A stretch of 40,000 nt of DNA from Terrabacter aerolatus (GTDB lineage Bacteria; Actinomycetota; Actinomycetes; Actinomycetales; Dermatophilaceae): assembly GCF_007991735.1 (NCBI RefSeq), contig NZ_BJYX01000024.1, positions 7,727 to 47,726 of the forward strand, in the 5' to 3' direction. Shown here piece by piece: positions 8,737 to 26,697 of the stretch. The notes beneath the pieces are model-generated. The model was not told the DNA's origin. It saw only the letters and a list, made by a program, of their open reading frames with translations, and made no database searches. How positions within the stretch are numbered: position 1 is the first letter of the stretch; every line of letters begins with the position of its first letter. The position numbers and the translations under genes are program-made.

Positions 8737-9443
8737 CGCAGGTGCACCTTGAATCGGGCGATGATGCCAAGAGCAGCGAGCTTCTTGAGACGTTCAGGCG
8801 TGAACCACGTCAGCGAGACGCCGCCCGGCTCCTGAGACCCCACGATGCCCTCAGCGATGTCGGCGTCAACCACCTCTCCGATTTGCTCGCCGCAGCGATG
8901 GATCGACTCCACGGCTGCTCGATGCTTCTTAACAGCACCACGGTCCGGGATGGGGCTGCTGGTGACTGCGAGCAACCGGGCCCGTGCGGTCTCCAGCGCA
9001 TCGCGGATCTCCTCGACGTCGACCCCGCCCTGCGCCAGTGCGTCGATGAGATCGACGTTGACCGCAGGCGGAGGCTGACTCACATACGTTTGCCACGTGC
9101 CCGCGACGAGAGCGCGTAGCTCTTTGGCGTACTTCTCGGCCGACCGGACACGCTCCTTGGCGAGGTCGAGATTCTGCTCCATTCCGAGCGCAGGCACTTC
9201 ACTCGCCAGAGCACGGAGACTCTGGGCTACCTGGGCCGCATCCTGTTCGTGCCCCGCCGGCAGTTCGACATCGAGTTGCATGACCTCACTCAGCGCGACG
9301 ATGAGCGCGGGCAACTCCGTCAACATTTGGGCGAGGCGTGCACTGAGATCTGCGAACTGGCCTGTCCGGACCTTGACCTGGTGTTCGTCGTTGGCGACTT
9401 CGGCGTGGGCACGCAGATCCTGGATCGTGCTGCGCAGGGTCAT
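8733..9443 (-). CDS. hypothetical protein, helical/coiled-coil-like (DpdI position)
   Basis: The ORF track starts at 9467. I prefer the ATG at 9443 (MTLRSTIQ...) because it forms an ATGA overlap with the upstream stop at 9440-9442. No motif recognised; the Dpd assignment is by synteny only. Confidence 0.6.
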   Translation of the reverse strand: MTLRSTIQDLRAHAEVANDEHQVKVRTGQFADLSARLAQMLTELPALIVALSEVMQLDVELPAGHEQDAAQVAQSLRALASEVPALGMEQNLDLAKERVRSAEKYAKELRALVAGTWQTYVSQPPPAVNVDLIDALAQGGVDVEEIRDALETARARLLAVTSSPIPDRGAVKKHRAAVESIHRCGEQIGEVVDADIAEGIVGSQEPGGVSLTWFTPERLKKLAALGIIARFKVHLR

Positions 9444-12400: not shown

Positions 12401-12496
12401 GACGCCGTCCGACGTGCTTTCCGCCTCGACAGGGATGATGGCTGAAGCCTCGTGTGCGTCCCAGCAAGCCGCTGGGAGGTTGCCGCGCCAACTCAC
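9440..12496 (-). CDS. large P-loop NTPase (DpdH position)
   Basis: Walker A ILGKSGTGKSHLV and Walker-B-like LLVLIEDFS. The track ORF (to 12904) has an Arg/Pro-rich N-terminal extension that overlaps the upstream gene. The real start is most likely the GTG at 12496. It is preceded by GGAGGA 5 nt upstream and overlaps the upstream TGA (GTGA at 12493-12496). Confidence 0.75.
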   Translation of the reverse strand: MSWRGNLPAACWDAHEASAIIPVEAESTSDGVFLATHSTIPITQRDQVDSARGGAVVDEQALLRAVQDQPADQPIIPILGKSGTGKSHLVRWLRAHLETKESTRLIFVPKHRMSLRGILELILEHASGERADELRSKVATAVDAAADEKTAQLKLRNALAVNIETRGNRTDGSPEEIELRSYLASAGGLPALFGDDVFRSRLLDQNGPIARLVREKLSGKGDEDKEDAFGFTPDDLNLSVDDVNRAGQAAREVAGALTSEHSFRELAAKMINEQLGPSVSEVFGVGGDDLKQILVDVRVELDKQGLELLVLIEDFSIFQGIQGGLIDAITLISTEAQKLCPMRVVMAVTTGYFINQMPETVYTRTYRVFDLDLPDGMNASFQPTGFASRYLNAVRVGASELDAAHAREEEVPNACEQCPVNAACHSSFGQVDGYGLFPFNQAALDRAIKSHSTDGSFVARNVLTRVLRPVLHRDQAEINHGRFPSEGFANDFRGGASHRLTNIEDQFKLRSPGDEELSERRIRLVRFWGSGPGAENLAPTIHDAFDVTPIDDLGDARPPTPDSRPTLPTKPSATSTSTPQPVAPDPPLVKAVDGWLATGNILQGEINDLRNIVFQAVRQRLPFEDGYGGESLWGNDKALAPGFEAKMVEFSQAKIADAVLPMDRSNPDDMRALRALAWANHKNNWADVPDGERLQRLTETAIDRWASRVGINLLPPQRPDNDTELARLVEVLLSIARGLGIADAFKSDTTSRIRAMFAPVPDRPDLESRAGLRALHSFLEEGARSGSAVTRVGRGQLQQRLLRHASFSQGSGKPLALDLSKVAKVVRSEVTGAPWPASTPDLIRSSVSTIEARLASIDSLHAEASNLVPDLSDLGGELADVAWELLVLVNERAAAGALPGGINPAELQAAVKSVKPGDQRKVEAAFAELSRWDQLTHDEKLQVLNGDWDEPARRVGAWLQMARQTVRLLEHSLGNGSPSDVQREYAEAREQLIANLTAMADSISPPATEAWSEAEEIA

Positions 12497-13416
12497 TTCT
12501 TTCCTCCATGGTTCACGATGGCGTGCGTTTGGCGCGCGGCGTCGAAACGGGACAGGCGGATGCCTTGTGCGTCTGGGAGCGTCTCGAATCGGATCCGTCC
12601 GCGTTCCTCGAGGATGCGCAGTGCCTGTCCGACTGAACTGTCCGCGCACTCGGCGACGATGCCTGGGTCGGGATCGGCTCCAAGGAGAGCCACGAGTCCG
12701 AACCGCATTGACCCACCATGAAGGACGGGGAGCGCTTGTCCGATGCGTGCCAACAGGTCGTGGATCGAGAGACGTTCGGCGGGCATCGCTCGTAGGGCGT
12801 CCTCCACCGCGGGCACCGGCAGTGGAACCACGCCGGTCCGGTCCTTCATGACTGACGGGGTCGCCAAACCGAGCGCGACAATCCAACGCGACGCAGCCAC
12901 CCAACGCGTGTCATTGACGATGGCCCACGATTCACGATCGGTTGTGCCGAACTGTTCAGACTGGAGTGTTTGTAGATTCTCGGTCCACGACAGCGGCTGC
13001 CCCAACGCGTCCTGTGCCAACACCCAGGTCAGGGCTCGGTTGAGGTCACGAGCGCCGCTCGTGTGTCCATCGCCCAGCTGCGTTGCCCAGACATCGCCAT
13101 CCCGGCCGAGGTCGAACACGCGGGCTTGAAGGAGTCGTCGAAACTCCGGAGGGTCGAACGGTGCCTTCGGCGTCGGAACCTGAGCGCCTAGTTGAAGAGT
13201 TCCGTCGGGATTCGTCTCGAGCACGTTGATGGCGCGCAGAGAGGAGATCGTGTTCTTCAGTCCGCCGGCGGCCTCGCTGCCGGGGTTCAGCCCCTCCGGC
13301 TTGAAGGCGGCAACGAGATCGTCCTCGGTTGACGAACGTCGTGCGTCGAGAAGGTAGTTCACGATGGCGCGGCCGAGGCCTGGCAATGTGCGTGGCGGGT
13401 TGAGTACTGCCATCAC
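12493..13416 (-). CDS. hypothetical protein (DpdG position)
   Basis: 307-aa ORF. Its GTG start overlaps the upstream helicase stop (GTGA at 13413-13416). No motif recognised; assignment by synteny only. Confidence 0.6.
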   Translation of the reverse strand: MMAVLNPPRTLPGLGRAIVNYLLDARRSSTEDDLVAAFKPEGLNPGSEAAGGLKNTISSLRAINVLETNPDGTLQLGAQVPTPKAPFDPPEFRRLLQARVFDLGRDGDVWATQLGDGHTSGARDLNRALTWVLAQDALGQPLSWTENLQTLQSEQFGTTDRESWAIVNDTRWVAASRWIVALGLATPSVMKDRTGVVPLPVPAVEDALRAMPAERLSIHDLLARIGQALPVLHGGSMRFGLVALLGADPDPGIVAECADSSVGQALRILEERGRIRFETLPDAQGIRLSRFDAARQTHAIVNHGGKK

Positions 13417-16010
13417 AGGCTCCTAAGGAAGTACGACAGCGTCCAATGCGGGAAGCGAATGGCCTTCACGGGTTGGCCCGGATACTGAGGGTCCGGCGTG
13501 TCCTCCGGGAGTACGACGATCCGAAGGGAACCCGCCTCCCCAGCAAGCCAACTCAACTGAGGTGGATCGGTCCGGTCCAATAGGACCAGCGTGGGGATCG
13601 GGAAGGTTCGGGGCGGACCCGCGATGATCGGATCGATGGCGACCAGTCCCTCGGGTGCAGAGCGACCTGCCCCCACCACTGCGGGCAAGCCGGTCAGACT
13701 TGCAGATGCCAAGATTCCTCGGACCCCGTGTGTCACTGCCTTTGTGACGAGTTCGGCAAGGTGGATCCGAAGATCTCCCTCGGGATAGGTCACCACCAGT
13801 GACCGGCCGCTGGAGGCCATCGACGCAAGGGTGGGACTTACTCCGCGGTGCAACAGGGGGAGCGGTGCTTCTTGCACCACTGGTCGTGCAGCCCGCAAAG
13901 ACGGCTCATGGACATGCGCGGCAGCGGGACATCCCGAACACGCGGGTGCGACCACCTGGTGAGCGCGCATCGCGCCCACCTCGTCGTACGCATATTCCTC
14001 GCTCAGGATTGAACCCCAGCATTCATCGAGCCTGAACATGCGCTCGATGCGGTCGCGCGAGCCGGCTTCTGAATAACGGATCTCACGTCGGACCTTGTCG
14101 ATCGCACGCAGGACGGTGGCCTCATCGACATTCGCAATGCCCGAGCGGATGCGCACGGTCGCACGCGTCACGTACGCGGACCAGGCTGTATCGACTCGCT
14201 TCTGCCAATCGGCTTCAGATTCGTCCTCGGCGCGCTCCAGGGTCGGCGGGGGAGTGTCGACAATGTCGAGCACCCCGGCCCGTTGTAGCAGGACCAGAGT
14301 GTTGCGGTTCCACAGTTGGTTGCTGTCGGAGGCGTGGGAGAGCCAGGGAGGGACGGTGCTGGTGTCCACGACGAGTTCGCGGCGCGTTGGGTCCGCCGAG
14401 ATGCGCGCCGTACGCATCGCGTCCCATCGACCCCAACTCTTCTTATCGCCAAGAACGGTGGCATTCTCGATGCTGCGACCTTCCTGGGCATCGGCGGTGC
14501 TCGGCATCCAGACCGATACGGCTGCGTGACCGTCGCGGCCACCGCGGCCAACCTCTTGATAGAAGCGGTCGACTGAGGCCGGCACACAGGCGTGGATGAC
14601 AGAACGAACGTCACTCTGGTCCACACCAAGCCCGAACGCACTGGTCCCCACGACCACGTCGACGGACGTTGGGCCAGCATCGCCAGACCACGCCCTCAGG
14701 ATTTCGAGCCTGTCGTCCGCGTGCACATCGCCATGGAAGACCGCCGTGCGGCCAAATCCCGCCTCTCGGAGTCGAACTGCAAGCGTGTCGGCCGACTCCT
14801 TCTTGCTGGTGTAAACGATCGCCGGCCGCGGAAGGTGGTGGAGTGCTTCGACAACCCGATCGAGGCGCGCCTCGTTAGGGACGGGCGGCGCAAATAGGTA
14901 ACGGAGTTCCGTGCGCAGGTACGTGGAACCTACGAACAGCGAAGTGTCGGCTCCGGCGAACAGTTCGTCGTTCAGCAAGAGGCCCTGTCGGGAGAGTGTC
15001 GCAGTCAGCAGTTCTACGTGGGGCGGTGCTACCCCTTGAGCCCGGGCGACCTCTCTCAGTTCGGCGATCAGGGAGGCGACTACTTGAAACTCGGGTCGAA
15101 AGCTCAGGCCCCAGGTGCGTACGAGGTGCGCCTCATCGATCACAACGTGGCTCAGTTCGCCCCGGGCAGCTAGGCGCCGCAGAGTCTGCGCCAGACCGGT
15201 GACCAGAGCCTCGGGCGAGGTGTAGAGAACCCTTTGCGTCCCTTCGCGCAGGCGCTCCTTGATCGCTTCCCTTTCGGTCGCGGCACGATCGCCGTAGTAG
15301 GCCAATTCCTGAGGAAGGCCCTGGTTTGGAAACCGCTGATGAAGTTGGCGCTCCTGGTCAAGCGCCAGCGCAATGGTCGGCACCACGACGACTGTCACGC
15401 TGGTACGAGCGAGTAGTCCAGGGGCGATGCCGACCAAGGACTTACCTGTTCCGGTGGGTAGGACCACGTGGAGTGTGCTGCCTGCAGGTGCAAGCGCAGC
15501 AGCCCGGACGGCGCTCGCTTGGCTTCGCGAACGGTAGGTGTCAATCCCAGCAATCGCAGCCACGGACGGGTCTACCGGCACTGCCATGTCGTGCCGGGCA
15601 AAGGTGGATACGACGCCCTCCGGACCTTCGAAATTGTCGGGGCTTGTGCAGGCCATATCGATCCAACGCCCGTCGCCGCGGAGCCAGTCGGGCGCCCAGT
15701 CTGGGCCAAGGGTGACGCGGTGCTCGTGCAGCCCGAACGTGGCGACGTCGAGGTTTGCCCGGCGAAGCGTCTCGAGCGGAAGGCCGCGGTCGTAGAGGCG
15801 AAGGGTCAGGTAGCTGTTGGAATGCCCTGTAGTCCCTCGGCGATGACGCAGTACCTGGCCTAGAAGCGCGGCAACGTCACCCGCGATCTCGGGCCCCGGA
15901 ACATCTGAGAACCATGCATCTACCAGTCGGCGGTGGGGCCCGATGAGAAGATCGCGGTTGTTTGTGGCTCCAGCCAACTTGGCTGCCCCCAGGTTCCACT
16001 GATCCGTCAT
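13413..16010 (-). CDS. dpdF: RecQ-like DEAD/DEAH superfamily-2 helicase (DpdF-like)
   Basis: 865 aa. Walker A LPTGTGKSLVG, motif II VVIDEAHLV, TAT (LLTATLS), motifs V/VI VVGTSAFGLGVDQ...YQEVGRGGRDG. Starts 1 nt after the SNF2 gene stop. Confidence 0.85.
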   Translation of the reverse strand: MTDQWNLGAAKLAGATNNRDLLIGPHRRLVDAWFSDVPGPEIAGDVAALLGQVLRHRRGTTGHSNSYLTLRLYDRGLPLETLRRANLDVATFGLHEHRVTLGPDWAPDWLRGDGRWIDMACTSPDNFEGPEGVVSTFARHDMAVPVDPSVAAIAGIDTYRSRSQASAVRAAALAPAGSTLHVVLPTGTGKSLVGIAPGLLARTSVTVVVVPTIALALDQERQLHQRFPNQGLPQELAYYGDRAATEREAIKERLREGTQRVLYTSPEALVTGLAQTLRRLAARGELSHVVIDEAHLVRTWGLSFRPEFQVVASLIAELREVARAQGVAPPHVELLTATLSRQGLLLNDELFAGADTSLFVGSTYLRTELRYLFAPPVPNEARLDRVVEALHHLPRPAIVYTSKKESADTLAVRLREAGFGRTAVFHGDVHADDRLEILRAWSGDAGPTSVDVVVGTSAFGLGVDQSDVRSVIHACVPASVDRFYQEVGRGGRDGHAAVSVWMPSTADAQEGRSIENATVLGDKKSWGRWDAMRTARISADPTRRELVVDTSTVPPWLSHASDSNQLWNRNTLVLLQRAGVLDIVDTPPPTLERAEDESEADWQKRVDTAWSAYVTRATVRIRSGIANVDEATVLRAIDKVRREIRYSEAGSRDRIERMFRLDECWGSILSEEYAYDEVGAMRAHQVVAPACSGCPAAAHVHEPSLRAARPVVQEAPLPLLHRGVSPTLASMASSGRSLVVTYPEGDLRIHLAELVTKAVTHGVRGILASASLTGLPAVVGAGRSAPEGLVAIDPIIAGPPRTFPIPTLVLLDRTDPPQLSWLAGEAGSLRIVVLPEDTPDPQYPGQPVKAIRFPHWTLSYFLRSL

Positions 16011-16011
16011 G

Positions 16012-19000
16012 TCAGTTCGTCAGTGCTCGGCCGGAGAGAACCACAAGCCCAGTGCTGTCAAGCCGAAGTGAGGGCGCGGTCACGGCGGCGGACATGGCGC
16101 GGGCAATGACTTCCTCGCGATGGAGTTCCTCATGCAAACGCACGAGTTCGGATCCTGTAGTGCGCATGGCTCGCAGTCGCAACTGGGAGAGCCTTGTTGC
16201 CGCGTCGCGATCGGCGATGGCAGAAGCTCGCTCGACCGCCGAACGAACGTCCTCGCGACTGCGGACGAGATGCTGAGCCGCTCTTTCCGCGGATCGCCAA
16301 GACTCGCCCCAGTGTTGTGCGGGAATGAGGTCGTAGGCGTGCTGGATCCTCATACGGTTTAGCGAGTAGTCGCCGCCGGCACGAGTGGTGCCCGGTTTCG
16401 CGTATGGGGCGTCGAGGGCGTCGAGATGCGTCCGCGCGGTCAACTCCTGCGCGCTGGCTGTCATCCAGACGCTGACGATGATGGGAGGAAAGATTCCATC
16501 GGCCCGCCGCGTAAAGGCGAGCTGGTCGATGCCCGCACTGACTGTCACGAGTTCACCACGCGGGTCCCTTGAGGAGGGAACATCAAGGGGGTTCGCCTCG
16601 ACGGCGTAGTCGAATCGGTAGAGCGGAGTGTCCTCACGGGGCCATTCGGGCATCGAACGCCACATGCCGAAGGCTCGGCCACGATCGTCGTGCCACAGGA
16701 AGTCGCTGACGGCGTCGATGAACGGGTCTCCGTAGCGGTAGAGGTGGACGTCCTCGCTCGAGAGGGCAAACTCCCGAACGAAGGTTCCGACGTGGTCCTT
16801 CAACGGAAGGAAGTCGCGAACGAGGCGCGATGCCGGGATCAGCGGAATCTGCGCTTGCTTCCCCGGCAGACGGCCGAGCGACTCGTATCCGCCCAAGCCA
16901 GTGGCAGGGTGGCCTCTCCGCTCGAATCTAAGGTTGCCCGCCGCGCCATTCGCTGCGAGAAGGTTGTTGCTCACGTTGGCGAATGTTGACGCATCGGATT
17001 CCACGTCAGCGATCCGCGCATACACGGAGCGCTCGTCGACGCTCGTCTCCAGGCTGTCGAGCGCGTCCTGTTCGCGGACGCGCTCGATCTCCGCGTCCAG
17101 CATCTCTCGAACCCGCGCCACCGCGGAGGGAACACCGTCGAGTCCCATTTGAAGGAGGATGTGCCACGCCTCGTCCGTTGCGTTGTCGACGGCTTGCTGA
17201 AGGCTGGCGACCGAGTTGTCGAAGATCCCGAAACCGTCCTTGAGGATGCGCTCCCAGGCGCCGGAGTAGGCGTCATCCGCGTGTCCCGAAACGACATATG
17301 ACCGCCACCCCCCGGACCCTTCGGGCGACCACCGGTCACAACGGCCGATGCGCTGCTCGAGACGGTTTGCTGATCCCGGAAGTCCCAGATGCACCAGAAC
17401 ATTCGCGAACTGGAGGTTGCGACCCTCTTCGGCCGATGAATCTGCGACCATGACTGCGGCATTATGGATCGCCTCGAACGAGCGCACCGAGCGGTCGTTC
17501 TCCTGGCTACTTTGGGTCGTCACATGGCAGAAGACAGACGTGGCGCCGAAGAGATCCTTGAGCTCCTCAGCCAGTTCGGTTGCCATTTCAGTTGTGGGGC
17601 AGAAGACGACAGCACGCTCGTTGGACGTCATGACCTCGCTGAGCGCGTCAGCGAACGGGCGGCTGACGGTTGCCCGTCGGTCCGCGTAGGCCACGTCCTG
17701 CACGATGCGCTTTAGCGCCGCGATTTCGTCAGCGGCTAGCGGCGCGGCGGCCCGCTCCAGTGCCCACTTCTGCAGGGCACTCGGGTCAAGGCTCACTGCT
17801 GCGGCCTCGGCGAATGCGCGCCCGGCCAGGGTCATCGCCGCCGGGTTGCCCTCTGCCGACGCAAGAGCCTGTTCCCGCCATCGGTCGAGAGCCTCTGCAA
17901 CGTCGTCGCGCAGGGTCGACTCCAGGGGAAGTGGCTCAGGCGCGCGACGACCAGAGACCCGATAGGTGCCCTCCAACGCCGTGGTACGCCGGGTCCGGAG
18001 CATTCGTCGGTGTACGCGGTACACCTCGGCAATGTGCGTGCGCAGCGCCTGGATCAGGGATGCCGTCTCGTCCCTGTCTTGAGTGGCCACCGACTCGCGG
18101 GCGCGCGCTACCAGATCGCGGACCTCGGCGTCGTCGGGGAACGAGGCTTCGATCTCCGTCAGGCGCCCCTTCAGAAGGACCCCTGGGAGGCTGGGTTGCA
18201 GCCCGAGAAAGACCCGGCCCAAGCCCGCACGAGCCTCCAAGCGCGATCGAAGTTGCTCCGCATTGGTGTCGGCATAAACCGCCGGGTCTAGCAGTTTGAG
18301 CATCGCGAGGAAGGCGTCCTCGTTATGCAGCGCTGGTGTCGCGGAGAGCATCAGTAGGCGCGGACTTGCAAGTGCGATCTCACGAAGCCGCTGGAAGCGG
18401 AGGGCGAGGTCGGGATTCGTGCTGACTGACATTCGTGCAAGGTTGTGTGCCTCGTCGACTAACACGAGGTCGGCCGCGTCCCACGCCGACGGCTCGTCAT
18501 CACGACTGAAGCGAATATGCGACTGGGTGAAGTCTTGCACGCGGAATTTCTGGGTCAACTCTCGCTTCCACTGGTCGAGTAGGAACGGAGGCAAGATGAA
18601 CTGGATCCGAAGACTGGGGTTATCCAGCAGCATTTGGCGGATGATGATTCCCGCCTCGATGGTTTTGCCTAGGCCGACCTCATCGGCGAGAAGATAGCGC
18701 TGGACAGGATCCTGTAGAACGCGCCAAGCGGTCTCGACCTGGTGGGCATGGAGTTCGATGCAGCTCGACAGCACAGCGCGCATGCCATGAGCGGCCGAGC
18801 GCTGCTGAAGGATGCTGCGGAGGAACGGCAAGCGCAGTTCAGCGAGCATGGGCGACTCGAGCATGCCGGCCTCGCCAAAACCCACCGGGTCCGTCAGTGG
18901 CTTATTCCATCGCACGTAGAGGCGTTCTTCCGGGATGAAGCCTTCCCACTCGTGGCCCCGCACATGGATGTCGTTGTACGCCGTGATCTCGATGACGCGT

Positions 19001-19443
19001 CCGGAGCGCCAAATGCCGGTTGGGTCCTGCCAGAAGGCACGTTGCTCGGGAGGGAGGGTCACTCGCCGGAGGCTTTCGCGTGACACAGCCTCCCGATAGC
19101 GGTCCGAAGGCGCCTGGCCTGGCGTGTCGAAGTACTCAAGGACCAGAGCATCACCTTCCCGCGCAACGAGTTTCCCGGGCCCGAGGACGTTGTCGGAAGA
19201 AGTGAGCAGGTCACCTCCCGATAGCGACTTGCCCCGGCCCCCCTGCCTGGACGTGGAGGAGGCCTTGCTGACCCTTCTCGCTGGTGTGTGGTTCTCGACC
19301 GCTTCGCCATTCGCGTCTCGCGACCCTCGGCATCGTGGGAACTGCGAGCAACCCCAGAACGCCTTGCCGACGTTGGCGCCCTTCGATGCAAACTGCATGA
19401 CCATTGCCGCTTCGCAACGCGGACAACGAACGTGGTCAACCAC
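16012..19443 (-). CDS. dpdE: SNF2-family helicase with N-terminal topoisomerase-type C4 zinc ribbon (DpdE-like)
   Basis: 1143 aa. N-terminal CPRC...GCSQFPRC zinc ribbon. SNF2 motifs LLADEVGLGKTIEAG, LVLVDEAHNL, LMLSATP, and C-terminal RLEQRIGRCDR. GTG start at 19443, with GGAGGG 6 nt upstream. Confidence 0.85.
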   Translation of the reverse strand: MVDHVRCPRCEAAMVMQFASKGANVGKAFWGCSQFPRCRGSRDANGEAVENHTPARRVSKASSTSRQGGRGKSLSGGDLLTSSDNVLGPGKLVAREGDALVLEYFDTPGQAPSDRYREAVSRESLRRVTLPPEQRAFWQDPTGIWRSGRVIEITAYNDIHVRGHEWEGFIPEERLYVRWNKPLTDPVGFGEAGMLESPMLAELRLPFLRSILQQRSAAHGMRAVLSSCIELHAHQVETAWRVLQDPVQRYLLADEVGLGKTIEAGIIIRQMLLDNPSLRIQFILPPFLLDQWKRELTQKFRVQDFTQSHIRFSRDDEPSAWDAADLVLVDEAHNLARMSVSTNPDLALRFQRLREIALASPRLLMLSATPALHNEDAFLAMLKLLDPAVYADTNAEQLRSRLEARAGLGRVFLGLQPSLPGVLLKGRLTEIEASFPDDAEVRDLVARARESVATQDRDETASLIQALRTHIAEVYRVHRRMLRTRRTTALEGTYRVSGRRAPEPLPLESTLRDDVAEALDRWREQALASAEGNPAAMTLAGRAFAEAAAVSLDPSALQKWALERAAAPLAADEIAALKRIVQDVAYADRRATVSRPFADALSEVMTSNERAVVFCPTTEMATELAEELKDLFGATSVFCHVTTQSSQENDRSVRSFEAIHNAAVMVADSSAEEGRNLQFANVLVHLGLPGSANRLEQRIGRCDRWSPEGSGGWRSYVVSGHADDAYSGAWERILKDGFGIFDNSVASLQQAVDNATDEAWHILLQMGLDGVPSAVARVREMLDAEIERVREQDALDSLETSVDERSVYARIADVESDASTFANVSNNLLAANGAAGNLRFERRGHPATGLGGYESLGRLPGKQAQIPLIPASRLVRDFLPLKDHVGTFVREFALSSEDVHLYRYGDPFIDAVSDFLWHDDRGRAFGMWRSMPEWPREDTPLYRFDYAVEANPLDVPSSRDPRGELVTVSAGIDQLAFTRRADGIFPPIIVSVWMTASAQELTARTHLDALDAPYAKPGTTRAGGDYSLNRMRIQHAYDLIPAQHWGESWRSAERAAQHLVRSREDVRSAVERASAIADRDAATRLSQLRLRAMRTTGSELVRLHEELHREEVIARAMSAAVTAPSLRLDSTGLVVLSGRALTN

Positions 19444-19480: not shown

Positions 19481-19517
19481 AACTCGGAAACCGGGTCCGT
19501 GGGGGCAAACGGCCGGT

Positions 19518-19535
19518 TAGGACACGGATGTCCTA
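19518..19535 (-). other. small hairpin overlapping the stop codon of the dpdB-like gene
   Basis: TAGGACA-cgga-TGTCCTA: a perfect 7-bp inverted repeat with a 4-nt loop, covering the TAG stop (19533-19535). It lies at the only intergenic gap of the operon. Confidence 0.3.
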
Positions 19536-20636
19536 CCTCAGCGCCTGTAGGAGGAAGTTGGTCAGGAGTCGGATGTCGCTGGGTGTGTTTTGGAGGCCGT
19601 TCCACCGGCGCACGTCGTCCGCAGCGAACTGCCAGGTGCCAGTGGTCCAAGCGCAGTGTGGGACCAGGCGAGCAAGCCTGCCCTCCAGATCGAGAGCATC
19701 CAGTTCGGTCTCGTCGTACCCCTCAGTCATAGCATCCATGACGTACCCCAGAGACTGAACTCCGACGCCATGGGTGAGGCGGGACTTGCGGGGTTCGGCC
19801 TGCCACGCGTCGTAGAACGTGGATTGCACAGCACTCCAGAAGCGGTCCAGATGCCCGACGATCTTGTCAACGTTCCCGGATCCGTCGTCAGGGTTCCGGT
19901 ATTGGTATAGAGCGCCGTCGGAGAGGCTGTTCTCGATCATCCTGAGGACGCTGTTGTCCTTAATCTCTCCGTCAGGTTGGGTGGGCGTCGAGATTCGACT
20001 GGCAAAGGGGTGCCCAACTTGCTTGCGAGGGCCAGAATTTAGCCGCGTCATGATCTGCGCGGGTAATTGCTTTCGCGCATACGCAGGCGGCAGGTGGCCC
20101 GTAGTATTTGGCAGCAGTTCGTGGATCAATCCCTTGGGAAGTGGCTTGGTGTTATTGACCAGGATGAATTGCGACCGCTGCTCTTCTTCGCCGTCGGCGA
20201 TGAATCCAACCGCCGCGAGAGGAAATTCTGCCAGGTCGGCATCGCGAATGGCTGCGCTGCGCTGCTGTCCATCGACGAGCCACGCTGGGCGTGATTCCTC
20301 GGACGCTGCCTCGTCGACCGGAATTATGAGTTCGCCCACGGTCGCATAATCAACGGCCGACTCATGGCTAATTTCGAAGCGGACTCTGGCGTCAAAGGCA
20401 AATACCACGGCGTTAGGAAGCAGGGCCCCGTCGGATTCAAGATAGCGTCGAATCGCCCGAATATGGCTGATCACCTCGGGACGCTGATAGCCCTTGAGGT
20501 CGGCTTCATCGCGATGGACCCGCGACACCGTAGCGAAGTCATGAATGCGCTTCCCGTCCACGCCAAATGAGTAGATATGCTTCCGGCCCTGTCGAATCCG
20601 CAGGGCAGGAAGGCGCAAATCGTATCGGTCAGCCAT
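19533..20636 (-). CDS. dpdB: DGQHR-domain ParB/DndB-like protein (DpdB-like)
   Basis: 367 aa. GYQRP...WLVDGQQRS motifs of the DGQHR / ParB-like nuclease superfamily. Its ATG overlaps the dpdA-like stop by 8 nt, with GGAGGA upstream. Confidence 0.8.
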   Translation of the reverse strand: MADRYDLRLPALRIRQGRKHIYSFGVDGKRIHDFATVSRVHRDEADLKGYQRPEVISHIRAIRRYLESDGALLPNAVVFAFDARVRFEISHESAVDYATVGELIIPVDEAASEESRPAWLVDGQQRSAAIRDADLAEFPLAAVGFIADGEEEQRSQFILVNNTKPLPKGLIHELLPNTTGHLPPAYARKQLPAQIMTRLNSGPRKQVGHPFASRISTPTQPDGEIKDNSVLRMIENSLSDGALYQYRNPDDGSGNVDKIVGHLDRFWSAVQSTFYDAWQAEPRKSRLTHGVGVQSLGYVMDAMTEGYDETELDALDLEGRLARLVPHCAWTTGTWQFAADDVRRWNGLQNTPSDIRLLTNFLLQALR

Positions 20637-21867
20637 GGGATTCCTCCGCTAAGTCCTCGTGGGCAAGTCGATGCATCTTATCGGCGAGCACCGACAGGTT
20701 GTGAAACCCGCGCCTCTTGTTGCGTTCGGTGCCTCGAAATATGGCTACCTCGATGCCAAGCTTCTGACAGACAGAGCATGAGCATGCGGTCCAGGGGGCA
20801 GCGCGAAGAGTCCGTTCATATTGAGCGCGATAGGTCTTCTTGCTCTGGCAGAGTCGCTCGTAAGAAGACAGGGCCTCCAAGGCCTCCTGCAGGCGCGTCT
20901 CTGAACCGTCGAACGCCCGCAGCGAGCGTAGGCATTCGCGTTCGCCCTTGAGGGCGTCACTTTGGGACACCCGTCCGGCAAGAATCGCGCGCCGGAGCGT
21001 CGGGTTGCCGTCCACTTGGGGGACTCTCAGTGCCACGAATGCCTCGTCGCGAGTGTGATAATTGAGGCGGTCATCCATGAAAGCTTGCCGAAACGCGGAA
21101 GTGCTATCAAAGCTGGTTACGCCGAGTTCCGCAAAGCGTGCCATCGACTCAACCCGGGTGATTCCAAGCAGGTGAAGTTCGCATTCGGGCTTGCGCACCG
21201 CTTCGATCGCTTCGAGGCATGCGAGTATCTCCCGCGTCTTGAGCGGCACCATGCCGCCGAGCGCAATACGGCGAAATCCGAATTCCTGAAGGTTTCTCAC
21301 GCTGTCCGCATAACTAGCAGGGCTCCACCCTTGAGCCGCGCCGACAGGTTCGATATCTGCTCCGCGCTCCGCGACCCGGGTGATGAACTCTTCTGCAAGT
21401 CGCAGGGTCAAACGTCGGCGCTCGGCCCAGGCGGGGTCTACTGTTGAAAAATCCGCGGCAGGTTGGTAGCCGAAGATGATGTGGTCCACGCTTACTCCGG
21501 CATCAAAGCCGCATCCTTCGTAGAAATCGAGAGTCTCGTCCACGGTGACAGGAGGAACAGGTTCGCTGGCGTAATTGAACGCACCGTTGTCACCCAGAGT
21601 TTTAACCTCACTAGGAAGGCGAAAAAACTTCTTCAAGCCCAGGCGGTAAAGGCGTGCTCTCTGGGCTGCTGTGTACTTGCCCGCGCCCTTAATCGAACCG
21701 TCCACTATGGATTTGCTTACGAGGATTCCGTCGTAAGGTGCCCGAGCAAGGACTTCATGGGCGTATCGATCGTCACGCTGTCGAATTCGGTGGGCAGCGT
21801 ATTCGTCGTGCAGGAAGTCGTACGTGGGGCTGACCAGGTCCTGGCTGTCGGGGAAGAAGAACTTCAC
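20629..21867 (-). CDS. dpdA: tRNA-guanine transglycosylase-family paralogue (DpdA-like DNA 7-deazaguanine transglycosylase)
   Basis: 412 aa. TGT-like elements: LGDNGAF, RIALGGMVPL (compare TGT AIGGL), GVTSFDSTSAF (compare TGT FD[CS]), and the zinc site CSCSVC...RGFHNL (CxCxxC...H). GTG start overlaps the upstream stop (GTGA at 21864-21867). Context is two DGQHR genes, not tRNA-modification genes. Confidence 0.85.
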   Translation of the reverse strand: MKFFFPDSQDLVSPTYDFLHDEYAAHRIRQRDDRYAHEVLARAPYDGILVSKSIVDGSIKGAGKYTAAQRARLYRLGLKKFFRLPSEVKTLGDNGAFNYASEPVPPVTVDETLDFYEGCGFDAGVSVDHIIFGYQPAADFSTVDPAWAERRRLTLRLAEEFITRVAERGADIEPVGAAQGWSPASYADSVRNLQEFGFRRIALGGMVPLKTREILACLEAIEAVRKPECELHLLGITRVESMARFAELGVTSFDSTSAFRQAFMDDRLNYHTRDEAFVALRVPQVDGNPTLRRAILAGRVSQSDALKGERECLRSLRAFDGSETRLQEALEALSSYERLCQSKKTYRAQYERTLRAAPWTACSCSVCQKLGIEVAIFRGTERNKRRGFHNLSVLADKMHRLAHEDLAEESHG

Positions 21868-23000
21868 TTGCGATGGGTCCGTTCCGCTAGATAGGTGCGG
21901 ATGAGGAAGTTTGACAAGGCGCTGATGTGCCGGGGCGTGTTTTGCAAGTCATTCCATGCGAGTCCAAGTGCGTCCCAGGAACCCCCTGTCCAAGCGCAGT
22001 GAATAGCGATGAGCCTGAGTTCCGTTGCAGCTGCCGCTCTAGCTTTCGGATCGTCGTCGCGCACGTGTGTCATGACGCGGTCCATGAGTCGTCCCATAGC
22101 GCGAATGCCAACGCCATGCATCAGACGACTCTCAGTCGCAGGTTTACCCCATGCGTCATGGAAGACATCGTGGACTGCTCCCCAATATGCGATGAGCAGA
22201 CGCCGGATGCCTTCCGTATCGGTCGTGCCAGTCGCGATGTTGCGATATGGGAAAAGGACGCCAGAAGGAGACTCGATGGACTCGCGGACGGCCTCGATCA
22301 GGCTTGTGTCTGTGACAAAGGTCGACCTTTTGGCGTCGGGGTCCGTCGAAGCGCGCCGAATGATTCCCCGGAACGGCGACTCCGGATCTTGATTGAGCAT
22401 GTCCACAAGCGCAGATGGCAACTGCCGTGTTGCCATACGGCCCGAAGGGACGCGAGTGATCTCAGGTAGCAGTTCGGTCACCAGTCCGGAGGGAAGCGGT
22501 TGAACCGTGTTCACCCTCAAGAACTGTTCGCGTTGTAGTTCAAGGGTGGGCGCAACGAATCCAGCGACAGGCACTGGCAGGCGCCGGTTCTTCGTGCGAG
22601 ACAACGCGAGGCTTCGCTGTTGGCCGTCTACGATCCACGCTGGTCGAGGACCATCGCTATCTCTACTGATCGGAATCTCCAATGTTCCGGAGACTGCCAG
22701 GCCGTCGCTCGTCGAGGGTCCACGACTCGACCTCCAGCGAACCTCCTGCGGGAGGGCGAGGATCAGGCCGTTGGGAAACAGTGGGGCCTCGGAGTCGAGG
22801 TACTCCTGAATCTGCTTGACGTGCTTCTTCTTCTCCGGCCTCTGGTAGCCAATCAGCTTGCCGGCCTCATCGCGGCTGATGCGTGCGACGTCGGCAACAA
22901 GGTCGACTTCCTCAGCGGCGAGTGTGAACAGGTAGAGGGGGGTGTCATCACTTTGGAGCACCTTCAGTGCTCGCCGTTCCAGCCATTCAATGCCGCTCAT
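21864..23000 (-). CDS. second DGQHR-domain ParB/DndB-like protein (full-length paralogue of the DpdB-like gene)
   Basis: GYQRP...WIVDGQQRS. It aligns over its whole length with the 19533..20636 product, for example QFLRVNTVQPLPSGLVTELLP vs QFILVNNTKPLPKGLIHELLP, and CAWTGGSW...LQNTPRHISALSNFL vs CAWTTGTW...LQNTPSDIRLLTNFL. I prefer the ATG at 23000 (MSGIEWL) because of its ATGA overlap with the upstream stop; the track start at 23048 would overlap by 52 nt. Confidence 0.8.
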   Translation of the reverse strand: MSGIEWLERRALKVLQSDDTPLYLFTLAAEEVDLVADVARISRDEAGKLIGYQRPEKKKHVKQIQEYLDSEAPLFPNGLILALPQEVRWRSSRGPSTSDGLAVSGTLEIPISRDSDGPRPAWIVDGQQRSLALSRTKNRRLPVPVAGFVAPTLELQREQFLRVNTVQPLPSGLVTELLPEITRVPSGRMATRQLPSALVDMLNQDPESPFRGIIRRASTDPDAKRSTFVTDTSLIEAVRESIESPSGVLFPYRNIATGTTDTEGIRRLLIAYWGAVHDVFHDAWGKPATESRLMHGVGIRAMGRLMDRVMTHVRDDDPKARAAAATELRLIAIHCAWTGGSWDALGLAWNDLQNTPRHISALSNFLIRTYLAERTHRK

Positions 23001-23866
23001 GAGGTGAGGGCCTCCTCGAATAGTCGCGTGAACCGGCGCTGCTCGCACGCTATGCCGGAGTTGCGCAGATTCCTTAAAGCAACTGTCTTGGGCAACTTCG
23101 GATTCAGTCCTCGCATCTGGTCGATCATTTGCTTGATGGCGTGATCAGAGACGGGCTTGCGGTCGTAGCGTTCCTGCTGCTGAGCGCCCAGGGCCCAGGT
23201 AGCCCAGTTGCGGTGGACCTCGGGTGCGGCTGGCATCTTGCCATCGGCGATCTCTAACCAACGGATCGCCATGCGTGCGTTCAAACTCGTGATCGTGCCG
23301 CCGAGTGCTCCTCGGAGGTTCCGATCCGATCGGATCCGGAGACTCGCCGGCGTGTCCGACGCCCCGCCGAAGACAACCGTCGATTGAGGATCGAGCGCTT
23401 GGAGGTCGTCCGTCATGGCCCGCGCGTACGACTCCGACAAGACCCATATAGAAGGGGCGTCGGCTCGAGGGCCAGCGGCGTGGGCGAGTTGCTTCCACCA
23501 AACGCTCGCATCAGGAGTGGCCTGCACCACGGAGTCACGGTGGCCGGTGGCGAACGTTGCTGCATAGGGCGGCGCGACGTCATCGACCGGGCGCAGGCCC
23601 AAGCCCGCAGACGCGACGAAGACCTCCGGTTGGAATCCAGTGCTCCGAGCGGTAGCGGCCAGTCGCTTGGCTTGAGTCCAACTCTCCCCCGCGTAGAGGT
23701 CGAGCAGACGCGTCGTCGGCCTTGTCGCACGGAGGCGGCCCACCCAGTCATCGGCGCGTTCCTTGACGGTGCCGGTTGGTAGCGTACGGGCCATCAGGTC
23801 GTGGTGCGGAGCACCCGTCTTGCGGTCGGTACAGGTGACCACGATCGTCAGTTTTTGGCGCGCCAT
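22997..23866 (-). CDS. dpdC: DpdC-like candidate (first gene of the operon)
   Basis: 289 aa. N-terminal TIVVTCTDRK...LYAGESW...VFVASAGLGLRPVDDVAPPYAATF resembles the DUF6884-type layout (C-[ST]-x-x-K, LY, SA-x-x-GL, PY) by eye. It is the remaining modification-module gene next to the dpdA/B-like genes. Assignment is tentative. Confidence 0.5.
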   Translation of the reverse strand: MARQKLTIVVTCTDRKTGAPHHDLMARTLPTGTVKERADDWVGRLRATRPTTRLLDLYAGESWTQAKRLAATARSTGFQPEVFVASAGLGLRPVDDVAPPYAATFATGHRDSVVQATPDASVWWKQLAHAAGPRADAPSIWVLSESYARAMTDDLQALDPQSTVVFGGASDTPASLRIRSDRNLRGALGGTITSLNARMAIRWLEIADGKMPAAPEVHRNWATWALGAQQQERYDRKPVSDHAIKQMIDQMRGLNPKLPKTVALRNLRNSGIACEQRRFTRLFEEALTS

Positions 23867-23967
23867 GACCCCTCGGATACAAAACTACGGCTTGGTTGTC
23901 GGTACTCTAGCGTGTAGTTTCGTCGGACGGTGCGCGTACGCACAGCCGGTATCGAGAGGTGGATGTT
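23867..23967. promoter_or_regulatory. divergent control region between the dpd operon and the preQ0 operon
   Basis: About 100-bp, comparatively A/T-rich spacer between divergent start codons. It contains the inverted repeat AAACTAC (23882-23888) / GTAGTTT (23914-23920) and GTGCG-cgta-CGCAC (23930-23943). GAGAGGTGG lies 6 nt upstream of the queC ATG. Promoters themselves are not identified. Confidence 0.4.
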
Positions 23968-24666
23968 ATGGGCCGCAAGGCAGTAGTGCTGCTCAGCGGG
24001 GGGCTGGACTCAACGACGGTCCTCGCGGTCGCGAAGGATCAGGGGTTCGAGCCGTACGCAATCAGCTTCCGCTACGGCCAACGGCATGTCGTTGAGCTCG
24101 AGGCAGCGCGCCGGGTGGCGCAGGCCGCCGGGGTGGAACGCCACGTCGTGTGCGACATCGACCTGCGAATATTCGGAGGGTCGGCGCTCACGGCCGACGT
24201 CGACGTGCCGAAGCATCAGTCGGCGGAGGAGTTGTCAGAGGACGACATCCCCATCACCTACGTCCCGGCACGCAACACCGTCTTCCTCTCCCTCGCACTG
24301 GCGTACGCGGAGGTCGTCGGCGCGACCGACATCTTCATCGGTGTGAATGCCCTCGACTACTCCGGATACCCCGACTGTCGGCCCGAGTACATAGTTTCGT
24401 ACGAACGCATGGCCAACCTGGCCACTCGCGCCGGTGTCGAAGGCAATGAACTGAAAATCCACACTCCCCTGATCAGCCTCACCAAGGCTGAAACCGTTGA
24501 GTTGGGAACGCGCCTGAGGGTCGACTACTCCCTGACCCTGTCGTGCTACGACCCCGATGACCAGGGGCGGGCGTGCGGTCACTGCGACTCATGTTTGTTG
24601 CGCTTGCGCGGCTTCGCTGACGCCGGACTCGTTGACCCGGTCATTTATCAGGAGGCGACTGCGTGA
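23968..24666 (+). CDS. queC: 7-cyano-7-deazaguanine (preQ0) synthase QueC
   Basis: N-terminal PP-loop [14 protein letters not shown] and C-terminal Cys cluster CY...[10 protein letters not shown]. The ATG at 23968 is preferred over the track's GTG at 23959 because of RBS spacing. Confidence 0.9.
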
Positions 24667-25298
24667 GTTACAAGATCAAGGAAATCTTCTACACCCTTCA
24701 AGGCGAGGGCACGCATGCCGGCCGCCCCGCCGTCTTCTGTCGCTTCACGTCCTGCAATCTGTGGACAGGCCGTGAAGCCGATCGTGAGAGAGCGATCTGC
24801 AAGTTCTGCGACACCGACTTTGTTGGCACGGACGGCGAAGGGGGCGGCAAGTTTCATGACGCCGAGGCGTTGGCGACCGCAGTGGCGTCTAAATGGCCGG
24901 TGAACGGCGGAGGGCGACCGATGGTTGTGTGCACGGGCGGCGAACCCTTACTGCAGCTGGATGCCGACGCCGTGGATGCCCTCCATGCACGTGGCTTCTA
25001 TGTTGCAGTCGAGACGAACGGGACTGTCACGCCGCCCCCCGGTATCGACTGGCTCTGCGTGAGCCCCAAGATCGGGTCCGAACTACTCGTCACGAAGGGC
25101 CACGAGCTCAAATTTGTCGTCCCTCAGGGCGGCGTCGATCCGACCACGTTCGAAGACCTCGAGTTCGAGAGTTACCGAGTGCAGCCGATGGATGGCCCGG
25201 ATGTGGCGGCGAACACCGAACTGGCCGTGCAGTTTTGCCTCGACCACCCGCTATGGCAGCTCAGTCTGCAGACGCACAAGCAGCTAGGAATACCGTGA
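24663..25298 (+). CDS. queE: 7-carboxy-7-deazaguanine synthase QueE (radical SAM)
   Basis: [16 protein letters not shown]...[29 protein letters not shown] carries the Cx14CxxC cluster variant known from Burkholderia-type QueE. GTGA overlap with the queC stop. Confidence 0.9.
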
Positions 25299-25663
25299 CC
25301 CACAACAGTGAGATCTATAGGGAGTTTACGTTTGAGGCGGCTCACAGGTTGCCGAACGTGCCCGAGGGCCACAAGTGTGCACGCCTGCACGGACACTCGT
25401 ACCTAGCGGCGGTCCACGTCGCTGGTCCCGTCGGCGAGGAGACGGGGTGGGTGCAGGACTTCGGCGAGATTAAGGCGGCATTCAAGCCCCTCGAGGAGCA
25501 ACTTGATCATCACTTCCTCAATGAGGTCCGGGGCCTCGAGAACCCGACGAGCGAGGTGCTTGCCAAGTGGATCTGGGATCGCCTCGTAGTGGCTCTTCCG
25601 AACTTGACCGAGGTGAGGGTGCGCGAGACGTGCACCTCGGGTTGCATTTACCGAGGAGAGTAG
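25295..25663 (+). CDS. queD: 6-carboxy-5,6,7,8-tetrahydropterin synthase QueD
   Basis: [27 protein letters not shown]...LDHHFLNEV is the PTPS/QueD His/Cys signature. The track ORF (from 24893) overlaps queE in another frame. The real start is the GTG at 25295, overlapping the queE TGA (GTGA). Confidence 0.9.
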
Positions 25664-25667
25664 AAAC

Positions 25668-26453
25668 GTGGCGCTGCCAGACATTCAGGACCAGGTTGAC
25701 GAGCGAGGAATCTCCCTCGACAACGTCGGCATTGACGGAGTCCGGATGCCAAGCACGTTCTCAGACGGGGTGACCACCCAGGCTGGAGTGGCGTCGTTTG
25801 AAGTAGTGGTGCAACTGCCCGAGGACCGGCGCGGCACCCACATGAGTCGCATGGTCGAGCTCGTACACGAGCACCTAGAGGTCATCGACCCGCGCGAGTT
25901 GCCCACAGTCCTGAAGCAGGCAGCCTCCCGCCTTGACGTTGGTGTGGCCACCATCGGCATTGGTCTGCCGTTCGCGACGCGCGTGTTGTCACCCGTGTCC
26001 GGGCGAGAGGCCTGGCAACCGAGTGACTTGCGTTTGCGGGCAACGCTGCGTGGGGACGTTTTCGAACTCGTAACATCTGTTACTAGCGAAGTGACCAGCC
26101 TGTGCCCATGTAGTAAGGCGATCAGCGATTACGGCGCACACAATCAACGCAGCGTTGTAACCGTGGATGTGCACGGACACGACGACTGTCCGTACCCCGT
26201 TTCGGTCGCCCGTCTGGTGGAACTGATTCGCCTGACGGGTTCTTGCCCCGTCTTTCCGATCGTGAAGCGACCGGACGAGCGCTCTATCACCATGACGGCC
26301 TTCGAGCACGCCGCATTTGTAGAGGACATGGCGCGCGACCTCTCTGGGCTGCTAAGGAAGCAGCGAGTGCGTCATAGCGTCCGAGTGCGGAATCTGGAGA
26401 GCATTCACAGTCACGATGCCATCGCCTCGTTGTCGTGGCGCCCCGAAGGGTAG
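25668..26453 (+). CDS. folE2: GTP cyclohydrolase I type 2 (FolE2 / GCYH-IB)
   Basis: 261 aa. LPDIQD...GISLDNVGIDGVRMP N-terminus, RRGTHMSR and SLCPCSK motifs typical of the FolE2/MptA family. Starts 4 nt after the queD stop. Confidence 0.85.
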   Translation: MALPDIQDQVDERGISLDNVGIDGVRMPSTFSDGVTTQAGVASFEVVVQLPEDRRGTHMSRMVELVHEHLEVIDPRELPTVLKQAASRLDVGVATIGIGLPFATRVLSPVSGREAWQPSDLRLRATLRGDVFELVTSVTSEVTSLCPCSKAISDYGAHNQRSVVTVDVHGHDDCPYPVSVARLVELIRLTGSCPVFPIVKRPDERSITMTAFEHAAFVEDMARDLSGLLRKQRVRHSVRVRNLESIHSHDAIASLSWRPEG

Positions 26454-26568
26454 AACCGTTCGCTCATCAAACTGAGACAAAGTTCGCCGGTCAGGGCTTC
26501 AACATGAACTGACTGTCGGCGTCTTATGTCATCATCTCTAGTGGGTCAAGAGGCGCGACCGTTACCCA

Positions 26569-26616
26569 CCTTGGAGGGGTCGCCCGGCAACCGGTCCGCC
26601 CCGGTGCCGTCCAAGG
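26569..26616 (+). other. GC-rich extended hairpin downstream of folE2 (terminator or leader structure)
   Basis: Outer stem CCTTGGA (26569-26575) / TCCAAGG (26610-26616). Inner stem GGC(a)ACCGG / CCGGTGCC around a 6-nt loop. A second small hairpin CCGGC-cgc-GCCGG follows at 26622-26634. No U-tract. Confidence 0.3.
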
Positions 26617-26697
26617 AAGACCCGGCCGCGCCGGCATCCGTCGGTCTGGCCAGAGCGGGCCTCGGTTCAGGGGCTCCTTGGACCGAAAGGGCTGCCG

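Follow-up and report, generated by a model that had tools for sequence, protein, structure and literature searches.

A complete preQ0 gene set beside dpdC in a Dpd modification-restriction island of Terrabacter aerolatus

The que genes and the island around them

The window, a stretch of 40,000 nucleotides, holds four intact open reading frames, queC, queE, queD and folE2, which stand in divergent orientation to dpdC-dpdB-dpdA-dpdB and to the dpdE-K/dpdD restriction genes beside them (Table 1). The whole island spans ~28 kb and has a GC content of 62%, against 71.8% for the genome. All four enzymes score far above the gathering thresholds of their Pfam models, and FolE2 clears the NF010200 equivalog cut-off by only ~1 bit; their activities are predicted from family membership. 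In the translated DNA, QueC has the PP-loop SGGxDS and a four-Cys zinc motif at its C-terminus, the C-x14-C-x2-C of QueE can be read directly, and QueD keeps the CxxxHGH motif. FolE2 matches the FolE2 structure of Neisseria gonorrhoeae (3D2O, E 5e-49), and the equivalents of Cys147, His159 and Glu201, which we take to be the metal ligands, are identical in the alignment.

Table 1. Features of the que operon and the Dpd island (positions in the window)
Feature	Position	Strand	Assignment	Evidence
dpdE, dpdF, dpdG, dpdH, dpdI-position ORF, dpdJ, dpdK, dpdD	1564..19443	-	restriction half	NCBIfam NF041061-NF041068
dpdB	19533..20636	-	ATPase partner of DpdA (role from PMC10164549)	NF041060 500 bits
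dpdA	20629..21867	-	DNA guanine transglycosylase, predicted preQ0 consumer	NF041059 599.3 bits vs cut-off 200
second DpdB paralogue	21864..23048	-	DGQHR/DndB-like, upstream of dpdA	NF041060 396.6 bits; PADLOC DpdB 474.5 bits
dpdC	22997..23866	-	predicted to turn DNA-borne preQ0 into its 7-amido form (dADG)	PADLOC DpdC PDLC02817, 336.7 bits, E 3e-101
dpdC-queC spacer	23867..23967	.	putative divergent control region, 101 bp	conservation among related loci
queC	23968..24666	+	preQ0 (7-cyano-7-deazaguanine) synthase, 232 aa	PF06508 259.7 bits; TIGR00364 215 vs cut-off 150
queE	24663..25298	+	radical-SAM 7-carboxy-7-deazaguanine synthase, Cx14CxxC subtype, 211 aa	TIGR04508 (queE_Cx14CxxC) 335 bits vs 240
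queD	25295..25663	+	6-carboxytetrahydropterin synthase, 122 aa	PF01242 130 bits; TIGR03367 106.5 vs 89.25
folE2	25668..26453	+	type-IB GTP cyclohydrolase I, 261 aa	PF02649 229 bits; NF010200 216.3 vs 215

The start of queC is an ATG preceded by GAGAGG, with a GTG at 23959 as the alternative in-frame start. At queC/queE (24663-24666) and again at queE/queD (25295-25298) a GTG start and a TGA stop share the letters GTGA, and 4 nt (25664-25667) lie between the TAG of queD and the GTG of folE2. The four genes are predicted to be carried on a single transcript. Downstream of folE2 come a SAM-IV riboswitch, which is a new minor point, followed by genes for a cREC_REC and a DUF3293 protein. A preliminary description of this DNA had proposed that the genes are coupled in this way, that together they encode every step from GTP to preQ0, that the cyclohydrolase is of type IB and QueE of the Cx14CxxC form, and that neither queF nor a tRNA-pathway gene follows the operon. 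All of this was borne out: no queF, queA or tRNA tgt comes next, the junctions lie where it placed them, each of the four families is above its curated cut-off, and the subtype models and the QueE motif agree with the two assignments. A search of two genomes of the same genus for an empty insertion site, with the sequence beyond folE2 as probe, gave only paralogous response-regulator matches, which did not place the right boundary of the island, and a scan for intrinsic terminators around the operon found two terminator-like hairpins, no more than expected by chance.

The spacer between dpdC and queC contains the elements AAACTAC (23882-23888), TACTCTA (23903-23909) and GTAGTTT (23914-23920), the middle one being a symmetric TAnnnTA that resembles a -10 core. 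Among 71 divergent related loci, 68 have a spacer of 96-119 bp, 65 contain TAnAGTA and 58 the full AACT..TAnnnTA..AGTT pattern; the conserved core in a divergent spacer of ~100 bp is a further new minor point. No Rfam family was found in the spacer and queC leader at E <= 1. A sigma-70 consensus scan returned no promoter in the spacer or around the operon, a consensus that actinobacterial promoters fit poorly, and a search of sequencing runs for this organism returned only metagenome DNA runs, with <=15% of the sampled words, and no RNA run with this DNA. This spacer is probably a compact divergent promoter shared by the two operons, the que genes on one side and the dpdC-led modification genes on the other.

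Of the restriction proteins, DpdD, E, F, G, H, J and K exceed the NCBIfam equivalog cut-offs, whereas the 244-aa frame in the position of dpdI matched no model. The product of dpdC had no match in Pfam or NCBIfam, its assignment being that of PADLOC.

Distribution of the que genes in the genome and in related loci

The assembly, in 62 contigs, is 100% complete, and profile searches of the genome, in which the positive controls were matched, found one copy each of QueC, QueE and FolE2, all in the island. TIGR00430, the model for the tRNA tgt, had no match in the genome, nor had QueF (PF14489) or QueA (PF02547), and the TGT-family model PF01702 matched DpdA only (24.5 bits). A housekeeping type-IA folE is located in an ftsH-folE-folP-folB cluster and serves folate. 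A second gene of the PTPS family, on contig C21, was rejected as a second QueD, since it lacks CxxxHGH and has a glycosyltransferase/dehydrogenase context. The existence of another que set, which could not be judged from the window, is thereby settled in the negative.

Within the host family, searches of 150 further genomes gave no DpdA, no genuine QueC, no bacterial tgt and no FolE2 (0/150 each). Weak matches to the QueC model in 29 related genomes (19-27 bits) were discarded, as they covered a partial PP-loop in frames of ~320-775 aa. By contrast, in 80 related actinobacterial dpd loci, drawn from Terrabacter, Nocardioides, Kribbella, Streptomyces and others (DpdA identity 62-80%), queC-queE-queD lies beside dpdC-dpdB-dpdA-dpdB without exception, and the second DpdB paralogue is likewise present in 80/80. 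The junctions are equally tight there (80/80, 80/80 and 69/69). folE2 is found in about 70 of the 80 loci and type-IA folE in none; from about 9 loci folE2 is absent, and thus it is not essential to the module. Among 50 sampled host genomes of these loci, 45 have no bacterial tgt and 5 have one.

Taken together, the sole que set, the lack of a tRNA pathway and a host family devoid of these genes indicate that the operon was acquired with the island and can serve DpdA only. The proposal that the operon supplies the base for the neighbouring TGT paralogue is upheld by the constant linkage to the dpdC-led genes and by the lack of any other consumer. That paralogue is indeed present, as dpdA, but it is not directly adjacent, as had been stated: dpdC and a DpdB paralogue separate it from queC, and it sits 2.1 kb from the operon. 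Similarly, the claim that the pathway ends at preQ0 holds for the free base but not for DNA, where, given the dpdC gene, the predicted end product is dADG as well as dPreQ0. In vitro, the DpdA/B of the Salmonella system insert preQ0 and DpdC forms dADG (PMC10164549).

The folE2 of this operon and the dpdA-dpdB of the island are similar to copies in Terrabacter, whereas for queCED-dpdC-dpdB the similarity is to copies in Nocardioides and Knoellia. The phylogenies of folE2 and queCED conflict, and the breakpoint falls at the one junction that has no overlap. To judge from these trees, the operon is a recombinant whose folE2 comes from another lineage than queCED, again a new minor point. A remnant of folE2 was found in one relative.

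Function of the operon

We consider, with a probability of about nine in ten, that the four genes form one operon feeding substrate to a horizontally acquired Dpd modification-restriction island. FolE2 would open GTP to give dihydroneopterin triphosphate, from which QueD would form 6-carboxytetrahydropterin; the radical-SAM enzyme QueE would then contract the ring to 7-carboxy-7-deazaguanine, and QueC would convert this into the nitrile preQ0. In this cell preQ0 would be neither reduced nor put into tRNA, DpdA being its only predicted consumer. DpdA, with the DpdB ATPase, would swap guanine in DNA for preQ0, and DpdC would hydrate the nitrile to the amide, so that dPreQ0 and dADG are expected in the DNA of this organism. 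The mark may shield the chromosome from the DpdD-K machinery of the island itself, which as a whole would carry out 7-deazaguanine modification of DNA and restriction of DNA that is unmodified. Given a host lineage without a queuosine pathway, the island must bring the whole supply line, its own GTP cyclohydrolase included.

Most bacteria use these four enzymes to make the preQ0 that goes into queuosine (PMC5699537), and the operon might accordingly be a housekeeping pathway serving tRNA, its proximity to dpd being incidental; the tgt found in 5/50 hosts of the related module would suit such a role. In this complete genome, however, tgt, queF and queA are all missing, and with them the bacterial tRNA queuosine pathway, tgt and real queC occur in 0/150 genomes of the host family, and the operon lies within a low-GC island. 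The preliminary description had named the presence of those three genes elsewhere in the genome as a finding that would overturn its reading; barring a tgt in an assembly gap, the tRNA role is refuted here, and we regard it as extremely improbable. Nearly as hard to sustain is a role as the source of preQ0/CDG for a deazapurine secondary metabolite of the toyocamycin/sangivamycin kind, alone or besides DNA modification. Actinomycetota often carry full FolE-QueD-QueE-QueC sets, many of which have been proposed to serve secondary metabolism, but that class, defined by a full preQ0/CDG pathway with tailoring genes, without tRNA-insertion enzymes and without dpdA nearby, excludes dpdA-containing clusters (bioRxiv 10.64898/2026.04.15.718813). 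Here dpdA is 2.1 kb away, and genes for tailoring, a phosphoribosyltransferase or export are missing from both flanks of the operon, which are taken up by dpdC at one end and by the riboswitch, cREC and DUF3293 at the other. The dpdC-dpdA linkage holds in 80/80 loci.

An explanation restricted to folE2, that the gene serves chiefly as a reserve GTP cyclohydrolase for folate synthesis that does not depend on zinc, and has no more than a loose tie to the preQ0 module, has more in its favour and is still improbable. FolE2 is a metal-flexible replacement of FolE (PMC5699537), the GTP cyclohydrolase step is common to folate synthesis, about 9 related islands do without the gene, and its evolutionary history differs from that of queCED. 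On the other hand, folE2 begins 4 nt downstream of queD and about 70/80 loci have it at this place, the host retains its own folE, and the lack of FolE2 in all 150 island-free relatives implies that the gene travels only with the island.

A bolder extension of the reading of the operon as the supply line of the Dpd island, which we regard as speculative and rather doubtful, is that this supply line is built of modules and fitted to the gaps in host metabolism. In this view folE2 would be an exchangeable cassette whose gain by swapping, loss and decay are separate from the history of queCED, as the conflicting phylogenies, the breakpoint at the junction and the remnant suggest; together with a bidirectional TAnnnTA promoter, it would make the operon an anti-autoimmunity device. 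If so, folE2 would be kept because a shortage of preQ0 leaves freshly made DNA without the mark and open to attack by the restriction genes of the island; the supply could fail, for example, when the host FolE is limited by zinc or when folate synthesis competes, and the symmetric promoter would tie the supply of the base to its insertion.

The arrangement itself is published and common, preQ0 genes being known inside dpd islands (PMC5699537, PMC12235509), and the present locus is an ordinary member. Its interest lies in annotation and in the comparison between lineages, beyond which it offers nothing new in kind. As tgt is missing here and in 45/50 of the sampled module hosts, the que genes mark a DNA-modification system, and they should not be counted as evidence of queuosine in tRNA.

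Comparison with other Dpd islands and phage modules

The Dpd system (dpdA-K) was reportedly described by Thiaville 2016 and Yuan 2018. The system of Salmonella enterica serovar Montevideo and other enterobacteria has the same DpdA-DpdK families, recognised here above the NCBIfam cut-offs or by the PADLOC DpdC model, and it follows the same logic, with que-made preQ0 inserted by DpdA/B and converted by DpdC, and restriction by DpdD-K. The present island differs in that its cyclohydrolase is FolE2 rather than a type-IA FolE, and in that a DpdB paralogue stands on each side of dpdA.

The cargo of biosynthetic genes varies with the lineage, giving a simple, testable picture of a mobile defence island that adjusts what it carries to the metabolism of its host. 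In the E. coli dpd island examined, located at tRNA-Leu with an integrase, only queD is present and the system relies on the queuosine genes of the host, whereas the operon described here encodes all four steps. Alphaproteobacterial plasmids carry queE-queD-queC and a transporter: on plasmid B of Sinorhizobium americanum, dpdB-dpdA-dpdB is followed directly, in one direction, by the que genes in that order, with a precursor transporter of the VUT/YhhQ family in place of a GTP cyclohydrolase gene. Actinobacteria have all four genes with FolE2. Their islands of the Kineococcus radiotolerans type contain an identical eight-gene module, folE2-queD-queE-queC / dpdC-dpdB-dpdA-dpdB, none being different in kind, and both dPreQ0 and dADG have been reported in Kineococcus radiotolerans DNA (PMC12235509).

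The preQ0/dG+ modules of phages such as 9g, CAjan and Rosebush likewise combine FolE, QueD, QueE and QueC with DpdA on a mobile element, which thereby modifies its own DNA independently of the host (PMC6884629). The phage modules, however, act in anti-restriction and are devoid of DpdB-K, whereas the module of this island would label DNA as 'self' within a cellular restriction system.

The preQ0 operon and its proposed consumer in the host genome

The genes queC, queE, queD and folE2 are co-directional and tightly coupled: start and stop codons overlap as GTGA at 24663 (queC/queE) and 25295 (queE/queD), and a gap of 4 nt (25664-25667) separates queD from folE2. Each of these details, given in a preliminary description of the sequence, is upheld by the ORF list and the sequence itself. 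The matches to PF02649 and NF010200 bear out its assignment of the cyclohydrolase to the FolE2 type, as TIGR04508 and the spacing legible in the translation do for the Cx14CxxC cluster variant of QueE. The CxxxHGH motif of QueD and the PP-loop and four-Cys site of QueC can be read there as well. A full-length alignment of the window FolE2 with the Neisseria gonorrhoeae FolE2 structure 3D2O (E 5e-49) shows identical residues at the Cys147, His159 and Glu201 positions.

Features of the window, with scores from profile searches
Feature	Position	Strand	Remarks
dpdE, dpdF, dpdG, dpdH, 244-aa ORF, dpdJ, dpdK, dpdD	down to 1564	-	in this order after dpdB
244-aa ORF	8733-9467	-	dpdI position, between dpdH and dpdJ
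dpdB	19533-20636	-	
dpdA	20629-21867	-	NF041059, 599 bits
DpdB paralogue	21864-23048	-	
dpdC	22997-23866	-	PADLOC DpdC, 337 bits
AAACTAC	23882-23888		spacer element
TACTCTA	23903-23909		spacer, TAnnnTA centre
GTAGTTT	23914-23920		spacer element
queC	23968-24666	+	ATG start preceded by GAGAGG; alternative in-frame GTG start at 23959; PF06508, 259.7 bits; TIGR00364, 215 (cut-off 150)
queE	24663-25298	+	Cx14CxxC subtype; TIGR04508, 335 bits (cut-off 240)
queD	25295-25663	+	PF01242, 130 bits; TIGR03367, 106.5 (cut-off 89.25)
folE2	25668-26453	+	PF02649, 229 bits; NF010200, 216.3 (cut-off 215)
SAM-IV riboswitch	26544-26661	+	RF00634, 44.4 bits (gathering score 38)

The T. aerolatus genome (4.42 Mb, 62 contigs, 100% complete) was searched family by family, with positive controls that were positive each time. 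QueC, QueE and FolE2 are encoded by the island only, DpdA is the sole match to the TGT family, the bacterial tgt equivalog has zero matches, and QueF and QueA were not found. A type-IA FolE is encoded outside the island, in a classical ftsH-folE-folP-folB folate cluster. A second PTPS-family (COG0720) paralogue of 132 aa, on contig C21 of the assembly (C21:34195-34572; L006:1492-1890), lies between a zinc-dehydrogenase-like gene and a GT4 glycosyltransferase gene; given these neighbours, and HGA in place of the CxxxHGH motif of QueD, it was rejected as a second QueD. Searches of a further 150 genomes from the host family, two of them from the same genus, found no DpdA, genuine QueC, bacterial tgt or FolE2; the only matches to the QueC model there are partial PP-loop matches of 19-27 bits, which were rejected as QueC.

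Taken together, these searches indicate that the host lineage has no queuosine pathway, that the entire que set came in with the island, and that DpdA is the only possible consumer of the preQ0 made by the operon. The preliminary description had proposed that the operon feeds the adjacent TGT paralogue, and had considered that it might instead be the only que set and serve tRNA queuosine. The former proposal stands, since the genome holds neither another que set nor a tRNA pathway.

Surroundings of the operon and its conservation

The gene set led by dpdC departs from a spacer of 101 bp in the direction opposite to the que operon, and the Dpd system that it makes up is complete. The dpd genes of the window all exceed their cut-offs by far, apart from the ORF at the dpdI position, for which NCBIfam, Pfam and PADLOC give no match. 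The GC content of the island, ~62% compared with 71.8% for the genome, marks it out as acquired horizontally; the low-GC block begins ~1.7 kb beyond the left edge of the window and ends at ~26600.

In line with the earlier description, no que or tRNA-pathway gene is found in the flank downstream of folE2. Instead, a SAM-IV riboswitch lies 90 nt past the folE2 stop and 37 nt ahead of a cREC_REC (PF20274) gene, which is ATGA-coupled to a gene for a 677-aa DUF3293 protein. The riboswitch accounts for the structured spacer noted earlier at this position. Both genes have host-like GC and are unusual cargo behind a SAM riboswitch. Terrabacter sp. Ter38 has the same element after its folE2 (L008:5206-5323, minus strand), and the two post-folE2 spacers are 95.7% identical over 185 nt, whereas the proteins encoded by the flanking genes share only 63-81% identity.

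A DpdA scan with one genome per species yielded 80 loci, all in Actinomycetota, the best matches being those of Terrabacter (80% identity). In all 80, queC-queE-queD adjoins dpdC-dpdB-dpdA-dpdB, and the gene junctions are tight, with gaps that extrapolate to between -14 and +17 nt. folE2 follows queD in 69 loci and is interrupted by a contig end in one more; type-IA folE is carried at this place by none of the 80. Carriage of folE2 in the island is not peculiar to T. aerolatus; it is a trait of the lineage, shared by ~70 of the 80 loci. The gene is truly missing in about nine loci (listed as L026, L017, L021, L022, L040, L042, L048, L058, L070 and L080), and L026 retains a 34-residue C-terminal remnant (L026:5478-5579), which indicates that the folE2 cassette can decay or be lost. 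Bacterial tgt is missing from 45 of 50 host genomes of related loci; in the five that carry it (L013, L022, L070, L085 and L087; 405-429 bits), the island que genes could supply tRNA queuosine too.

The que operon diverges from dpdC in 71 of the 80 loci, including the window. In 9-10 loci of Actinomadura, Microbispora, Nonomuraea, Thermopolyspora, Spirillospora and Nocardia (L037, L051, L052, L057, L059, L073, L080, L081, L084 and L085), it is co-directional with dpdC and directly upstream of it; FolE2 in these is only 35-38% identical to that of the window in all but one, L080, which has no folE2. The divergent spacer measures 96-119 bp in 68 of 71 loci and contains a conserved core, AACT-N-TAnAGTA-N-AGTT, found as a full pattern in 58 and as TAnAGTA in 65; in the window the layout is AAACTAC-N14-TACTCTA-N4-GTAGTTT (23882-23920). 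A single compact control region probably serves both modification operons. On either strand, TAnnnTA can be read as a TAnnnT -10 hexamer, so that it is a candidate bidirectional promoter, and the inverted repeat that flanks it is a candidate operator. A scan with the sigma-70 consensus returned no promoter; we infer the promoter model from the sequence of the spacer.

Recombinant history of the modification module

The module (19500-26500) is a recombinant mosaic, in which folE2 and dpdA-dpdB are Terrabacter-like and queD-queE-queC-dpdC-dpdB are Nocardioides/Knoellia-like. FolE2 is 81% identical to Terrabacter copies and at most 64% to all others, whereas for QueD, QueE and QueC the identity is 88-91% with Nocardioides/Knoellia copies and only 75-79% with those of Terrabacter; by protein identity, DpdC and the upstream DpdB side with the que genes, and DpdA and the downstream DpdB with FolE2. 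Sliding-window nucleotide identity places the switches of affinity near 25650, the queD/folE2 junction and the only one with no overlap, and near 21600, within the 5' end of dpdA. The FolE2 tree groups the window with two Terrabacter loci (SH-aLRT 98), as does the DpdA+DpdB tree (99), and the QueC+QueE+QueD tree groups it with Nocardioides sp. PD653-B2 and Knoellia (97). The window+Terrabacter clade, defined from FolE2 data and hence independently of the tree under test, is rejected on the QueC+QueE+QueD data (AU test, p 4e-35).

Proposed function and comparison with known dpd systems

By family membership, FolE2, QueD, QueE and QueC would convert GTP to free preQ0, DpdA and the DpdB ATPase would exchange guanine in DNA for preQ0, and DpdC would then turn it into dADG, the amide form. 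The mark would act as a 'self' signal to the DpdD-K restriction half. Insertion by DpdA/DpdB and conversion by DpdC have been reconstituted in vitro with Salmonella proteins (PMC10164549).

In a survey of 2025, ~27% of dpd islands had de novo preQ0 genes and 78% had QueD (PMC12235509), and phages encode FolE-QueD-QueE-QueC together with DpdA (PMC6884629). In the literature searched, two papers name FolE2 as well as DpdA, and neither places FolE2 within dpd islands, so that this detail may be undocumented. The que cargo of dpd islands varies by lineage. The E. coli island (600468 chromosome, L094), found in 159 of 5426 complete genomes, has queD as its only que gene and lies at tRNA-Leu with an integrase, whereas that of Sinorhizobium americanum plasmid B (L093) carries dpdB-dpdA-dpdB-queE-queD-queC and a VUT/YhhQ-family transporter, with no cyclohydrolase. 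The operon of the window is an ordinary member of this published kind of system, to which its recombinant history, the conserved symmetric core of the candidate promoter and the downstream SAM-IV riboswitch add minor extras.
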